DNA of 64,000 nucleotides from an uncultured delta proteobacterium (GCA_963743305.1 CAVUPH010000007.1:160001-224000); one strand, 5' to 3'. Counted from the first letter of the stretch, positions 58,641 through 64,000 are shown. Made by a program: numbers and translations. The notes: a model not told the origin generated them from the letters alone.

Positions 58641-58671
58641 AAAAAAAGGGTCTTACCGAGGCAAGACCCTT
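58641..58671 (-). terminator. Rho-independent terminator of the hdr-flx operon
   Basis: Minus strand AAGGGTCTTGC-CTCG-GTAAGACCC followed by TTTTTTT. Confidence 0.75.
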
Positions 58672-58695: not shown

Positions 58696-60006
58696 TTATT
58701 CTTCTTCCTCTTCCAATTCTTCCATGACCACCCCATCCCGTTCGAACTGGGCGTCGCGCAAAGTCGTGGCCTCGGCGATCTCCTCGTCGCTCCAGGGTTC
58801 GATGACGATGGATTCAGCCAGCAGCTCCCAAAGGTACATGGTTTCAATGGGCAACTGATATTCCTTGGTCAAACCCTTCAGGATCTGATCCCGGCAGTTG
58901 TGGCAGGGGGCGACCACTAGTTCGGCACCGGTTTCGAGGATCTGTTTGGCCTTGACCCGGCCGTAATAGATCCGTTCCTTGTCATAGGGCATCGCCCAGG
59001 CCCCGCCGCCGGCCCCACAGCAATAATTATTCATGTCCGCCGGGTACATATCCACGTAATTGTCTACCAACTGCTGGGTGATCCAGCGGATTTCCGGACC
59101 GTAGCTTTTGCCCAAAACCATCTGGCTCTTACGGGTATAATTGCAGGGATCGTGGGCCGTGGTCAATTGGGGGTGTCGGGATTTATCGATGGTCACCCGA
59201 CCGCTCTGAATATATTCAATCATTAACTCAAACACATTGATTACTTTGAATTCCTTGAAGGCTTCCGGGAACCAGTTTTGCAGACCGACACGGGTCGCAA
59301 AGTAGGCGTGGCCTCACTCCGGTAGGAGGAGGGTTTTGCATTCCAACCTTCGGGCATTCTCCAGTACGCGCCCCACTTGTTCCTTCCAGGCCGGGTCGTC
59401 TCCGGAGAAGAGTCCCCAGTTGACCCCTTCCCAGTTGGTGGAGGAAACGGTCCAGTCCTCCTTGGCGGCGTAGAAGATCTTCCACCAGAATTTCATGTCG
59501 TCCGGTTCGCCGAAGGGTTCCTTGGAGTTGATGGTGGTAATGATATTGGCGCCTTTTTTATCCACCGGCACATAAAACCCGGGGCATCCGTCGTGGGCCA
59601 GTTCCTGCCCCAGATCGGCCAGGAGGCCCAGGAAATCATCCCGGGGGATACCCAGGTTGTTGCCCCGCTGCAGGTTCATCATGGTCCCTTTGTGGATGGG
59701 ACCCGGCACCTTATCCCGGTCCCGTAATCCCCGGGCCTTGCGGAAGGTTTTCATTAAATTGATGCCCATGGGGCACTGGTTCTCACAGCGGCCGCAGAGG
59801 GTGCAGATCCAGGGCCAGCGGGAGGCAATCAGCTCATCATCCAGACCCAGGGCGGCCATACGGATGGCCTTGCGGGGATCGAAGCCGTCTATCCCGGTCA
59901 CCGGGCAACCGCCGGCACAGGTGCCGCAGGTGAAACAGAGATCGGCCATCTTGGCATCCACGGCCAGTTTCCTGTTTTTCTTGTTTACCTTGAGGGGTTC
60001 AGCCAT
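58696..60006 (-). CDS. HdrC-like ferredoxin + CCG-domain Fe-S oxidoreductase (HdrD/GlpC-like), selenocysteine-containing
   Basis: CFTCGTCAGGCP and CTLCGRCENQCP, then LLLPE-TGA(59316-59314)-GHAYFATR in frame with HDPCN, CCGAGGG and APCHNC. Joins two ORF-track pieces into 436 aa. Confidence 0.88.
59277..59301 (-). promoter_or_regulatory. Putative bacterial SECIS hairpin (HdrD-like gene)
   Basis: UUUGC-GACC / CGUGUC loop / GGUC-U-GCAAA, starting 12 nt after the UGA, with a bulged U and GU in the loop. Confidence 0.65.
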
Positions 60007-60076
60007 AGCAACACTCCTTAAGTAGAAAATAAATAAACGATTAAAATATATCTCTTTGTTTCTTGAAATACAAGAC

Positions 60077-60946
60077 TTAATATTCCTTGGGCAGGCTGTT
60101 CAACTTGGCCAGGGTGAAGACCGGACCGTCCTTGCAGACGAATTCCGGGCCGACGCTGCAGCGGCCGCACATGCCGATGCCGCACTTCATCCTGTTTTCC
60201 AGGCTCATGATAATCCGTTCCGCGGGAAAACCCAGTTTTTCCAGCACCGGTTGGGTGAACTTGATCATAATGGGCGGGCCGCAAACCAAGGCGAAAGCGT
60301 CTTTGGCGCCGGGGGCCTTTTTTTCGGTTATGGCCGGGACGAAACCCACGTTGTATTTCCAGTCCGGGTCGTCGGTGCCGTCCACGGTGATATGCATTTT
60401 AATGTCGTCTCGGGCCTCCCAGGCGGCCAATTCTTCCTTGTATAGGAGCATACCCGGTGATCGGGCCCCGTAGATGACGGTAATATCCTTGAAACGGGAT
60501 CTATTGCCGGGTTCCAGAAGATAAATAATAGTGGAGCGCAGGGTGGTGAAGGCAAAGCCGCCGGCCACGATGACGATGTTCTTTCCTTCCATTTTTTCCA
60601 GAGGATACCAGTTACCCAGAGGCCCGCGAACCCCCATAATTTCCCCTTCTTTCATATTATGGAGAAAGGAGGATACCAATCCGACTTTGTTGACCGTGAA
60701 TTTAATGAATCCCTGTTCCGTGGGCGAAGAGGCGATCCCGATAGGGATTTCTCCCCTTCCGGCTATGGACAGTTCGGCGAACTGTCCGGAATGGTAGGAA
60801 AAGCGCTGTTCGTCTGCCGGGTCCAGGAAAACGAATTTAAATGTTTTCAAGTTCCGGTCCTCGGTCTCGGTGACGATCTGATCGATACGGACCGGATAAG
60901 GTTTATAGGGATTTACCACGAAGACACCCCCTCTATTTCGCCTCAA
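60077..60946 (-). CDS. flxA: FAD/NAD-binding oxidoreductase subunit (FlxA / HydG-like)
   Basis: GQFA, RGPLGN, VAGG, VCGPPIM, MKCGIGMCGRC....VCKDGPVF. Confidence 0.85.
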   Translation of the reverse strand: MRRNRGGVFVVNPYKPYPVRIDQIVTETEDRNLKTFKFVFLDPADEQRFSYHSGQFAELSIAGRGEIPIGIASSPTEQGFIKFTVNKVGLVSSFLHNMKEGEIMGVRGPLGNWYPLEKMEGKNIVIVAGGFAFTTLRSTIIYLLEPGNRSRFKDITVIYGARSPGMLLYKEELAAWEARDDIKMHITVDGTDDPDWKYNVGFVPAITEKKAPGAKDAFALVCGPPIMIKFTQPVLEKLGFPAERIIMSLENRMKCGIGMCGRCSVGPEFVCKDGPVFTLAKLNSLPKEY

Positions 60947-61979
60947 AGGCGTTCATAAGATTGCCGACGCGCCGGATATCGATATTCACCGGGCAGAACT
61001 GAACGCAGCGGCCGCAGCCGACACAGGCCACCCCGTTACCGTATTTATCCACGAAATACTTTAACTTATGCATGAACCGTTGCCGGACCCGTTGTAGTTT
61101 CTGCTCGCGGGGGTTATGGCCGGAGCCGTGCAGGGTGAACAGCGGATACATGCAGGCATCCCAATTCCGCATTCGAATTCCCTTTGTCCCTTCCACTTCG
61201 TCCTGGATGTCGAAACACCAACAGGTGGGGCAGAGGTAGGTGCAGGTGCCGCAATTAATGCAGGAAAACTGAACCTCTTCCCAAAAGGGGGCGTTGAAAA
61301 GGGGCAAGAGGGGTTGATCCTTAAGCCGATCGGTAGCCACCTGGATGGGCAGAGCGGTCTCCGCTTCCCGGCGAATGTTTTCCGCCTGCTGCCGTTGATC
61401 GTCGGATGGGTTTTGGGCTTCAGCGGCTTCTTTAAGCAGGGCTTCGCCTTTTTCGGTAATCGCCTGGAGGAGATAGGTTTCCCCCAAATCGGTCAGCAGA
61501 ACATCCAATCCGACCGGGTTAAACGGGCCGCCGCCAACCGAAGTGCAGAAGCAGGTAGAACAGGGCTGGTTGCAACCCAGACCTACCAGGGTGAGGGTGT
61601 CACGTCCATGCTGCCACCAGGGATCCTGGTACTCCGGGTTGACGAAGTTTATCTCCACCAGCTTTAGCGCCTGAGCGTCGCAGGGGCGGACGCCCAACAA
61701 CAGGCGGGGAGTCTCATCCCAGGGGGATTCTTTCAATATATGGGCTTCCGGATCGGAGGGATCCAGACTGAACTGAAACATCCGTTCGGAAGGAGGCTGA
61801 ACCAATTGTTTCGGAGAGAGGCGTGCGTTTTGAAAGGAAAAATCCGGCCCTTCCTCTTCCCCCAGGGCGATGAAGTTAAACTGATCCCCCTGCCGAACCG
61901 GTCCGATCAATTGAAACTGTTGATGGAGACGGCGCAACCAGGCGGCGAAATCTTTCTTGGCAAGACTCTTGGTTGTCAT
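60933..61979 (-). CDS. flxB: 4Fe-4S dicluster subunit (FlxB / AsrA-like)
   Basis: GVRPCD, C..PC.TCFC, CINCGTCTYLCPTCWCF, RQRFMHK, CVGCGRCV.FCPV.IDI. Confidence 0.85.
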   Translation of the reverse strand: MTTKSLAKKDFAAWLRRLHQQFQLIGPVRQGDQFNFIALGEEEGPDFSFQNARLSPKQLVQPPSERMFQFSLDPSDPEAHILKESPWDETPRLLLGVRPCDAQALKLVEINFVNPEYQDPWWQHGRDTLTLVGLGCNQPCSTCFCTSVGGGPFNPVGLDVLLTDLGETYLLQAITEKGEALLKEAAEAQNPSDDQRQQAENIRREAETALPIQVATDRLKDQPLLPLFNAPFWEEVQFSCINCGTCTYLCPTCWCFDIQDEVEGTKGIRMRNWDACMYPLFTLHGSGHNPREQKLQRVRQRFMHKLKYFVDKYGNGVACVGCGRCVQFCPVNIDIRRVGNLMNAFEAK

Positions 61980-62005
61980 GTGTCAGGTCCTTAGTCCGTA
62001 TGGTA

Positions 62006-62956
62006 TTATTTGATAAATTCCTGGAGGTCGTCGGGCAGAAACACATCCAGGGGCGGGCGACCCTCGACGATAACCCCGGCCTCGAAGTGATAACGGTCCC
62101 AGACGTCCTTTTCCAGTTTTTTGGTAAACTGCCGGACCTTGATCCCTACGGGGCAGGACCGTTCGCAGGCCCCGCAATCGGTACAGCGGCCGGCCAGGTG
62201 ATAGGCGCGCATGAAATGAAAGGTCCGGAGGTCAGTTTTATCCAGGCTCTTTCCGACCCATTGCGGTTTGGATTCATCCGCAAAGCACAAGGGGCAGTAA
62301 CACTGGGGACAGGCATTTCGGCAGGCGTAACAGCGGATGCAGGGTTCGATCAATCGCTCGAAATATTGCCACTTCTCCTCCGGAGTCATGGCCTCCACGG
62401 CGCGGATATCTTCGTACCGGTCTACCCCAGTCTGCTCCGGGACAGCTTCGCCTAAAAGCTCATCATAAATAACCGGATTCCGATGGAGACAGATGGCGCA
62501 ATTATCCTGGAGCAACTCCGTCCGGGGAAAACGCTCTTCAAACCCACGGCCCTCCACCAGGACCTGATCCTTCTCCTCCCGGACCTCCAAGGGTTCCCGC
62601 CCCGCAAGCCGGATCCAAACCTTGCGGCGGTCCAACATGCCCAGGCAGGGAGCGCCGAGGATAACCAGTTGATCCCGCTGGATCTGTCCTTCCTGAAGGT
62701 GGACAACGATGTTTCGGCTGTCGCAACCCTTGGCCACAATAGCGATCCGTTCGGTGCGCTTGGGAAGATAATTGGCCAGATTAACGCCGCAGAAGGAATC
62801 CCAGTAGAGCTGATCCGCCTGTTCGGCCCGGCGGATCTGTATCGGTTCATTCATCATGGGGACGGTGCCCCGGCGGTAGCCGATGACTACCTCTACCTTC
62901 CCCTCTGCGAGGAGTCTTTGGGCGGCTTCCTGTATTTTTTCCGTGTAATTCATCAT
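62006..62956 (-). CDS. flxC: 4Fe-4S subunit FlxC
   Basis: KGCD.R, CIRCYACRNACP.CYC..C, H.AGRCTDCGACERSCP. Confidence 0.82.
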   Translation of the reverse strand: MMNYTEKIQEAAQRLLAEGKVEVVIGYRRGTVPMMNEPIQIRRAEQADQLYWDSFCGVNLANYLPKRTERIAIVAKGCDSRNIVVHLQEGQIQRDQLVILGAPCLGMLDRRKVWIRLAGREPLEVREEKDQVLVEGRGFEERFPRTELLQDNCAICLHRNPVIYDELLGEAVPEQTGVDRYEDIRAVEAMTPEEKWQYFERLIEPCIRCYACRNACPQCYCPLCFADESKPQWVGKSLDKTDLRTFHFMRAYHLAGRCTDCGACERSCPVGIKVRQFTKKLEKDVWDRYHFEAGVIVEGRPPLDVFLPDDLQEFIK

Positions 62957-63391
62957 TTATGCTACCTCAGCCAAATGTTTTCTGAAGTGGGGGGATGGCC
63001 CCAGGGCCTTGATATCGTTGGTAACCTCCGTAACCACCTGTTGAAACTTGGTGGCCTCGGCCGATGATATCCAGGAAAATTGCAGACGCCCCGGTTGAAT
63101 ACCCATGTGCTCCAGGAGGCCTTTAAAAAGGGCGAATTTTCTCCGGGCGTAATAGTTGCCGGCGATGAAATGACAATCCCCCGGGTGACAGCCGGAAACC
63201 CAGACGCCGTCCGCCCCGTGGCGAAAAGCCCCCAGGATGAATTTGGGATCCAGACGGCCCGTGCAGGGGATCCGAATGACACGGATGTTGGGGGGATATT
63301 GCAACCGACTGACGCCGGCCAGGTCAGCCCCTCCGTAAGTGCACCAGTTACAGAAAAAAGCAATGATTTTTGGTTCAAACGGTTCACTCAT
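62957..63391 (-). CDS. mvhD: MvhD/FlxD [2Fe-2S] subunit
   Basis: FCNWCTY.GADLAG.SR, PCTGR, GCHPGDCH..GN. Confidence 0.92.
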   Translation of the reverse strand: MSEPFEPKIIAFFCNWCTYGGADLAGVSRLQYPPNIRVIRIPCTGRLDPKFILGAFRHGADGVWVSGCHPGDCHFIAGNYYARRKFALFKGLLEHMGIQPGRLQFSWISSAEATKFQQVVTEVTNDIKALGPSPHFRKHLAEVA

Positions 63392-63484
63392 AACAAATCC
63401 TTTTTACGCTTGGCGCAAAGCGCTGAGCGCGAAGCGTTACTAGGTTTTTTTATCTAAAATTTGGACGCGCTTTTTGTCCAAATT

Positions 63485-64000
63485 TTAGGCGGCATCGATC
63501 ATGGCGAATATCTGGTCCTGGTTGAAGCCCTTCAAGGTGATGGCCCCGGAACGACAGGAGGCCACACAAAGGCCGCAGCCCTTGCAGAGAGCGGGGTTGA
63601 TTTCGGCTTTGGCGGTTTTTTCGTTCCAGCCGGGGGCCGAGTAAGGACAAATAGCCACACAGACTCCGCAACGGCTGCAGATGGCCTGATTGGTCAGGGC
63701 CACGGTCCCGCTGACTTCGATATTCAGGCTGGATAGCAGGGTGACGGCCCGGGCAATGGCGGCCTGGGCCTGGGCGATGGATTCATCCACCGGTTTGGGG
63801 TAATGGGCCAGGCCGCAAAGAAAGACCCCGTCGGTGGCAAAGTCCACCGGCCGCAACTTGGCATGAGCTTCCACGAAAAACCCGTCGTCATTCAAAGGGA
63901 CCTTGAAGAACTGGGCCAGTTCGTGGTCCTTATAGGAAGTGATGGCCCCGGCCAACCCCAAGAGGTCGGCCTGGATCTGGACTTCCTGACTGAGGATATG
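63485..64000 (-). CDS. hdrA: Heterodisulfide reductase subunit A, C-terminal part (partial at window edge)
   Basis: FFVEAH.KLRPVDF.TDGVFLCG.AH.PK...SI.QA.AA, then CSRCG.C...CPY and CKGCG.C...C. The frame is open to the window end. Confidence 0.92.
   Translation of the reverse strand, partial: HILSQEVQIQADLLGLAGAITSYKDHELAQFFKVPLNDDGFFVEAHAKLRPVDFATDGVFLCGLAHYPKPVDESIAQAQAAIARAVTLLSSLNIEVSGTVALTNQAICSRCGVCVAICPYSAPGWNEKTAKAEINPALCKGCGLCVASCRSGAITLKGFNQDQIFAMIDAA

Follow-up and report, generated by a model that had tools for sequence, protein, structure and literature searches.

A Conserved In-Frame UGA, Very Probably Encoding Selenocysteine, in the HdrD-like Gene That Closes an hdrA-flx Operon of an Uncultured Delta Proteobacterium

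Introduction

A selenoprotein family termed "Fe-S oxidoreductase (GlpC)-like" was tabulated by Zhang et al. 2006, its genes being clustered with selenocysteine (Sec)-encoding hdrA and with frhD (PMC1794560), and a 2026 review gives "UGH" as the motif of the family and assigns PANTHER PTHR43551 to it (PMC13188914). The present analysis concerns a gene of similar type, coding for an HdrD-like (HdrC+HdrB fusion) protein with an in-frame UGA and placed at the end of an operon of hdrA and flx genes. It lies in a stretch of 64,000 nucleotides (nt), hereafter the window (GCA_963743305.1 CAVUPH010000007.1:160001-224000), which belongs to an uncultured delta proteobacterium; the genome assembly comprises 4.9 Mb in 43 contigs and is 90% complete, with 5.7% contamination.

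Several other described systems are close to this locus. FlxABCD-HdrABC of Desulfovibrio vulgaris was proposed to reduce ferredoxin and a DsrC-type disulfide by bifurcating electrons from NADH (Ramos et al. 2015, cited in PMC5947623 and PMC5296606); in the Hdr/Flox cluster of Syntrophobacter fumaroxidans (Sfum_1969-1977), HdrD is found in place of HdrBC (PMC5947623); and HdrD4 of Desulfobacterium autotrophicum HRM2, a soluble fusion homologous to HdrC and HdrB, is listed as a selenoprotein (PMC2702500). As for DsrK, HmcF and TmcB, the Cys of their (T/G)ECGH motif was described as the lone survivor of a lost second cluster site and as probably catalytic (Barbosa et al. 2024, PMC10861901), while a preprint on DsrK cryo-electron microscopy (10.64898/2026.08.25.746951) reports that Cys329 is non-ligating and bears a persulfide, and that the neighbouring His is conserved in single-cluster relatives. 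A Sec family with the UGH motif, a Sec-containing HdrD and the replacement of HdrBC by HdrD in an Hdr/Flox cluster are thus all already published, and the interest that an earlier note on this DNA had attached to the Sec call was, for this reason, over-rated.

Conservation of the In-Frame UGA

A plain list of open reading frames (ORFs) splits the region into two minus-strand frames, 59314..60006 (230 aa) and 58696..59235 (179 aa). When TGA is translated as U, the region becomes one open frame of 436 codons, in which residue 231 stands in the context ...RRLECKTLLLPE-U-GHAYFATRVG... (also written CKTLLLPE-U-GHAYFATR) and is followed by HDPCNYT, NYCCGAGGG and then APCHNCRDQ. The single fused HdrC+CCG gene that the earlier note had described is indeed present, with every one of its elements where it had been placed.

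When 60 related genomes were searched in six frames, 17 orthologues were retrieved, 60-97% identical to the query, and all 17 have TGA at the identical [LY]PE*GHAY site. A one-genome-per-species scan of public contigs gave 574 relatives, the best 80 of which were examined (62-96% identity); the same-site TGA is found in 80/80 of them. These loci derive from metagenome-assembled genomes labelled Desulfobacteraceae, Desulfarculaceae, Desulfatiglandales, Desulfobaccales, Syntrophobacterales and others and, being those closest to the query, their count is not to be taken as a family-wide ratio of Sec to Cys. The frame is continuous in all these 97 other loci, none of which ends at the TGA codon.

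The protein collection supplied 120 full-length homologues, all of them at most 62% identical to the window protein because gene callers split the Sec forms. In the column of U231 they carry Cys in 95 cases, Ser in 16 and another residue in nine. The alignment of U with the Cys of ECGH, as anticipated in the earlier note, was found in 6/6 DsrK proteins passing the NCBIfam cut-off, where LLLPE-U-GH falls on ILGGECGH; the equivalent sites of paralogues read PDCGG or CECGT. According to these alignments, Sec231 and His233 of the U-G-H motif correspond to the Cys and His of (T/G)ECGH in DsrK, HmcF and TmcB.

A SECIS-Type Hairpin Maintained by Compensatory Changes

Downstream of the UGA, RNAfold predicts a bulged hairpin of the selenocysteine insertion sequence (SECIS) type, with the sequence UUUGCGACC / CGUGUC / GGU-C-UGCAAA and a G in the apical loop. 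Base pairs were counted in 82 distinct sequences and compared with 500 shuffles: paired cells amount to 82.6%, versus 75.7% in the shuffles, and double-sided changes to 39, versus 9.9, neither value being reached in any of the 500; when the partners are slid, they pair at 26-47% only. Column pair 26-39 is GC in 56 sequences, AU in 24, UA in one and GU in one, pair 29-36 is CG in 70 and UA in 12, and pair 28-37 is CG in 82/82. Moreover, a synonymous change of Thr ACC to ACU co-occurs with a change of Gly GGU to Ser AGU on the opposite strand of the stem, a coupling which, judged from the alignment, is hard to explain without selection at the RNA level. The hairpin after the UGA is maintained by compensatory change across the 82 sequences, and the stem-loop that the earlier note had seen 12 nt after this codon is thereby borne out.

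The locus therefore shows the traits of the GlpC-like family, i.e., a UGA at the position of a Cys in homologues, the U-G-H motif inside a COG0247-type Fe-S/CCG protein and a hairpin shortly after the UGA; it also resembles the published cases in its occurrence in anaerobes of Deltaproteobacteria type and in its clustering with Sec hdrA and mvhD/frhD. It differs in gene order, since the operon published for the family is glpC-hdrA-frhD-frhG-frhA with a hydrogenase, whereas the window gene follows flxA and ends hdrA-mvhD-flxCBA. The in-frame UGA very probably encodes Sec at the catalytic residue.

Domains, Fold and Cluster Motifs of the Protein

Pfam assigns an HdrC-type dicluster domain (Fer4_8) to residues 21-82 and one CCG domain to residues 283-374. 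The best NCBIfam matches are HmcF (NF045711, 203 bits for a cut-off of 750), TmcB (NF045724, 164.5 for 735) and DsrK (NF045796, 144.5 for 400); such scores, far below the cut-offs, indicate a relative of those families and not a member. A sequence search of the PDB retrieved HdrC at E 2e-15, and a family profile search retrieved Mycobacterium smegmatis EtfD (9ojn_A) at E 7.8e-16 and, weakly, HdrB. The AlphaFold model (predicted local distance difference test, pLDDT, 88.8; predicted template modelling score, pTM, 0.89) was used in a fold search, which matched EtfD (9ojn; Z 23.6, 381 aligned), HdrC (5odh_I; Z 9.3) and, over model residues 153-403, the whole of HdrB (5odc_B and 8rvu_B; Z 18-19, 240 aligned). 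EtfD differs in being a membrane-linked protein of 1042 residues, and HdrB in having two full CCG motifs and in being a subunit separate from HdrC. The window protein is a soluble HdrC+HdrB fusion, HdrD-like, of the DsrK/HmcF/TmcB type.

The cysteines of the dicluster domain are highly conserved, C24/27/30/34 being kept in 118 of 121 aligned rows (the other three have gaps) and C68/71/74/78 in 120-121 of 121; all eight are invariant in alignment A1. Also invariant is the CCG motif formed by C288, C329-C330-G331, C368 and C371, which is the sole complete CXnCCGXnCxxC motif, as the N-terminal half of the HdrB-like fold is devoid of CCG. A search for an internal repeat (hhalign, residues 128-262 versus 263-400) found none, with a probability of 1%; that the N-terminal half is equivalent to a CCG domain is instead proposed because the fold matches the whole of HdrB and on the basis of the literature. 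The presence of one complete motif suggests that the protein probably holds one non-cubane [4Fe-4S] cluster. By analogy with DsrK, Sec231 would probably be a non-ligating catalytic residue, given the single CCG motif and the report that the equivalent Cys329 is non-ligating; the idea put forward in the earlier note, that Sec is a possible ligand of a non-cubane cluster, is not supported on these grounds.

The protein shares with DsrK, HmcF and TmcB the HdrC-like dicluster domain, the single CCG and an E-[C/U]-G-H motif that aligns column by column with DsrK; it differs from them in being soluble, in scoring below their equivalog cut-offs, in lacking a membrane partner in the operon and in having Sec for Cys. 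DsrK has Asp (C..AID) where the window protein keeps the fifth cluster Cys (CHNC). Unlike methanogen-type HdrD (HdrDE), the window protein has one CCG motif and not two, and its operon contains no cytochrome b. HdrD4, as it is described, is likewise a soluble, Sec-containing fusion of HdrC+HdrB type; its genomic context, in the published description, is not an Flx one.

A DNA-binding domain of the HTH_17/excisionase type (PF12728), which is not present in the window protein, forms the N-terminus of its closest Cys-type homologues (P0002-P0118), proteins of about 485 aa with at most 62% identity.

The hdrA-flx Operon and Its Genomic Context

The features of the locus are collected in Table 1. 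The gene order is hdrA(Sec)-mvhD-flxC-flxB-flxA-hdrD(Sec), and the operon is closed, as had been claimed, by a terminator-like hairpin with a T run. hdrA extends beyond the window and encodes a tandem protein of 1015 aa with two FAD/Rossmann modules; it has an in-frame TGA of its own at C7:226334 (DCAM-U-IISPKL), which is the known CxxU Sec site of HdrA. Together with the UGA of the hdrD-like gene, this means that the operon encodes two selenoproteins. The statement in the earlier note that MvhD and the visible tail of HdrA use Cys only is correct within the window, but it does not extend to hdrA as a whole.

Table 1. Features of the hdrA-flx-hdrD operon and of its flanking signals; positions are those of the window unless a contig is named.
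Feature	Position	Strand	Remarks
hdrD-like (HdrC+HdrB fusion, GlpC-like) gene, candidate selenoprotein	58696..60006	-	436 codons + TAA stop
In-frame UGA, codon 231, read as Sec	59314..59316	-	Motif PE-U-GH
SECIS-type bulged hairpin	59277..59301	-	RNAfold; starts 12 nt after UGA; apical loop 59287-59292
Shine-Dalgarno AAGGAG	60014..60019	-	7 nt before ATG at 60006; read from sequence
Intrinsic terminator-like hairpin, closes operon	58646..58671	-	11-bp stem + T run; 25 nt past stop
FlxA-like FAD/NAD(P)-binding protein, DHODB-type Fe-S domain	60077..60946	-	PF00970, PF00175, PF10418; NCBIfam hydrogenase gamma/AsrB-like
FlxB-like Fe-S protein	60933..61979	-	Fer4_22; AsrA/ShyB-like
FlxC-like Fe-S protein	62006..62956	-	Pfam
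FlxD = MvhD/FlpD protein, Cys form CNWC	62957..63391	-	PF02662, E 5e-55
hdrA 3' end	63485..64000	-	Gene runs past window to C7:226532 (C7:223485-226532)

No hdrBC genes are found upstream of hdrA, where the next gene is PyrR-like by reading of the sequence and not by a family search, and the Flx genes are single-copy in the genome; within the complex, the fusion would therefore stand where HdrBC otherwise would. Five hdrB-like genes are present on other contigs, four of which adjoin hdrC/hdrA matches, so that at the level of the genome the fusion supplements HdrBC. Of the two possibilities raised in the earlier note, replacement would thus apply within the complex, and for the genome only supplementation does. 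The operon contains no membrane cytochrome or cytochrome b gene, according to the ORF list and Pfam, and no DsrM/Hmc/Tmc membrane partner.

The survey for hdrD-like genes following flxA, suggested with the first description of the locus, showed that the arrangement hdrA-mvhD-flxC-flxB-flxA-hdrD(Sec) recurs in three of the related genomes (G005, G020 and G028). Of the 80 best public loci, 12 share it, and nine are impossible to judge as they have less than 450 bases of upstream DNA. Other Sec orthologues lie directly 5' of hdrA-mvhD (L145, L160, L161 and L165) or in other contexts. By domain content, the operon resembles FlxABCD-HdrABC of D. vulgaris, in that it combines genes for a flavoprotein that binds NAD(P)H, for two Fe-S proteins, for MvhD and for HdrA; it differs in having no separate HdrB and HdrC, in the order hdrA-flxDCBA-hdrD and in its two selenoprotein subunits. 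The S. fumaroxidans Hdr/Flox cluster has two hdrA genes, whereas a single tandem hdrA is found here.

Selenocysteine Machinery and Points Against the Selenocysteine Reading

The genome contains selB (363 bits), a selD that is itself interrupted by an in-frame TGA, and a tRNA-Sec (75 bits) whose anticodon is UCA. The Sec machinery looked for on the basis of the earlier note is thus largely in place, with the exception of selA: neither TIGR00474 and PF03841 nor tblastn with the SelA of a relative found it in this 90%-complete assembly. All three congeners have selA, as do 18 of 20 relatives overall, and for this reason, given also the completeness of the assembly, its absence is most likely an assembly gap. 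When the 19-kb neighbourhoods of selA in two congeners were compared with this genome, blastn gave only matches of 65-68% identity and about 0.45-0.7 kb, on unrelated contigs, and it seems that the selA region, at least, is missing from the bin.

Besides the missing selA, a number of other observations weigh against the view that codon 231 is Sec in a disulfide reductase of this organism. Ser or another residue occupies the site in 25 of the 120 Cys-type homologues, which indicates, on the alignment, that the residue is not indispensable everywhere. As regards the hairpin, the single-sequence fold of the 86 nt after the UGA has a z-score of 0.04 and is not thermodynamically unusual, so that the support for the hairpin comes from covariation; furthermore, one clade (AACCCGG..CGGGUU) pairs in a register shifted by one base and does not fit a single consensus. 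This shifted register, scored on all 82 sequences, was rejected as statistically unsupported (57.7% paired, versus 57.0% in shuffles). The sequencing runs that were sampled contained at best a share of 0.25 of the sampled words, none reaching half, and the contigs obtained from four runs, including those bridging the TGA, come from relatives and not from this organism; an RNA-library contig (X16) and a DNA contig (X2) bridge the TGA, and attest its presence, not expression or decoding. Neither dsrA nor a true dsrK was found in the assembly, nor was a two-Cys DsrC, three DsrC/TusE-like proteins being present without the two-Cys tail; the substrate of the enzyme is therefore not anchored in this genome. 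Finally, the genome harbors a tRNA of selC* type, which is considered below.

The gaps in the dsr genes were attributed to the assembly, as all three congeners carry dsrA and it occurs in 11 of the 12 members of the family; on this basis a reading of the organism as not being a sulfate reducer was dropped, and the bin probably lacks the dsr regions. With these points taken into account, it is highly likely that the gene encodes one soluble HdrD-like protein of 436 residues, in which UGA231 is read as Sec via SelB, tRNA-Sec(UCA) and the hairpin; this protein would act as the disulfide-reducing arm of the Flx-Hdr complex.

A second HdrD-like gene with a Sec site (VVITE-U-GHAL, i.e., TE-U-GH) is located at C23:9882-11183 (L025); its product, of 433 aa, is closer to HmcF and TmcB (499 and 452 bits, respectively), still under the cut-offs. 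In two LutA/GlcF-like CCG proteins (C7:36652-36999 and C13:292491-292853), a TGA lies inside the tblastn match; conservation ends where it falls (..ILNSR-U-TYEPN..), and the text that follows looks non-coding, so that, from the sequence context, both TGAs are probably ordinary stops.

The selC*/selB* Cassette and Other Readings of Codon 231

The tRNA mentioned above, at C14:100707-100798, is 92 nt long and Sec-like in shape, with a GCA anticodon and U73, as in the selC*-type tRNA-Cys, and a SelB-like gene is found directly 3' of it. The two genes are the published selC*/selB* pair, which is described in Mukai 2017, where the main text contains no match for "Hdr"; according to PMC13582414, which cites Vargas-Rodriguez 2018, the UCA and the GCA forms both recode UGA in a SECIS-dependent manner, inserting Cys. 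SelB* (C14:98746-100664) is split here by a frameshift into two overlapping ORFs of 417 and 283 aa, the shorter one with the C-terminal SelB-like part, whereas it is a single ORF of 638-664 aa in G013 and G028; the split reflects either a frameshift error or a pseudogene. The whole region, C14:98746-105999 (L002, L024 and L174), comprises, on the minus strand, the small and large subunits of a [NiFe]-hydrogenase, a protease, MvhD, an HdrD-like Cys paralogue, selC* and the SelB-like gene. The paralogue, 5' of selC*, is 47% identical to the window protein and has MPDCGGGS at the Sec site; the order paralogue-tRNA-selB* recurs in G013 (GCA) and in G028 (UCA).

The neighbours of selC*-selB* were surveyed in 300 genomes, from which 30 SelB-like loci were kept, 17 of them with such a tRNA. 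An Hdr-type gene (HdrD-like, MvhD or HdrA) lies within about 1.5 kb in nine of these 17: the HdrD-like paralogue is directly 5' of the tRNA in five, MvhD stands between the tRNA and selB* in three, and HdrA is nearby in two, of which one has already been counted with the paralogue loci. In addition, HdrD-like and HdrA genes adjoin the SelB-like gene at L179, a locus without a called tRNA. As the selC*-selB* loci come from few lineages, this linkage is a lead and not a result. Across five loci, the MPDCGGGS paralogues beside selC*-selB* share no conserved SECIS-like hairpin downstream of their Cys codon.

These findings raise the possibility that codon 231 is dual-coded, being read as Sec via SelB and tRNA-Sec when selenium is available, and as Cys via selC* and SelB* otherwise; the cassette would then be dedicated to redox genes of the Hdr/Mvh type. 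Such an arrangement is regarded as unlikely; if true, selenium supply would decide which chalcogen a DsrK-type reductase carries at its catalytic E-[U/C]-G-H residue.

A related and still less probable explanation is that the selC*-type tRNA-Cys, together with SelB or SelB*, reads the UGA as Cys, either entirely or when selenium is short, giving a Cys product or a mixed Sec/Cys one. The selC*-type tRNA beside its SelB-like gene, the recoding reported for both anticodon forms and the missing selA are in agreement with it, as is the case of G028, in which a UCA-form selC*-selB* pair coexists with a flx-linked TGA orthologue; they are countered by selB, the UGA-containing selD and tRNA-Sec(UCA) of this genome, by the occurrence of selA in nearly all relatives, by the frameshifted SelB* and by the fact that TGA has been kept in 97 other loci, though a change of one base would give a Cys codon. 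Cys could be inserted at codon 231 under some conditions by the selC*-type tRNA.

That the TGA is a true stop, with a 230-aa HdrC-like protein followed by a 179-aa CCG protein starting from GTG at 59235, is very improbable. The plain ORF call gives precisely these two proteins, and canonical Hdr has HdrC and HdrB as individual subunits; however, the Cys homologues conserve the protein sequence of the 26 codons between TGA and GTG (GHAYFATRVGLQNWF...), the frame remains open through the site in the other loci, the split would cut the HdrB-like fold, and no Shine-Dalgarno sequence was seen on inspection before the GTG. A sequencing or assembly error, or a decaying pseudogene, is scarcely credible: the genome is a partly contaminated draft in which SelB*, at least, also seems to contain a frameshift, but the same-site TGA of all 17 orthologues and all 80 best loci argues that it is not an error, since many species, assembled independently, have this very codon, protein identity is 60-97% on both sides of it, and the bridging contigs from other runs have no variant at 59314-59316 among the differences listed for them (108 further differences fall outside that list).

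Proposed Mechanism

With Sec at codon 231, as preferred here, a route for the electrons may be proposed by analogy with FlxABCD-HdrABC. NADH would be oxidised at FlxA and the electrons would pass via FlxB, FlxC and FlxD to the flavin of HdrA, which would bifurcate them towards ferredoxin and the HdrD-like subunit; the latter, standing in for HdrBC, would reduce a thiol/disulfide or trisulfide carrier. DsrC-bound sulfur would be the likeliest substrate, because the congeners carry dsrA. In the catalytic step, the selenolate of Sec231 may act as the nucleophile that takes the sulfur of the substrate beside the cluster, as a selenosulfide or selenopersulfide, which would then be reduced at the adjacent cluster.

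Implications

Nothing in these results changes what is known of the family, already on record since the mid-2000s. For the organism, they correct an annotation, as the split into two ORFs made by gene callers hides the catalytic subunit of the sole Flx-Hdr complex of the genome, and they indicate an operon that would need selenium twice, in HdrA and in the HdrD-like subunit. For the family, selenium would be placed at the very residue that was singled out in DsrK as the sulfur-carrying catalytic Cys beside a single non-cubane cluster; the Sec forms may thus represent a natural probe of the mechanism, through Se-S intermediates and the comparison of U, C and S variants.

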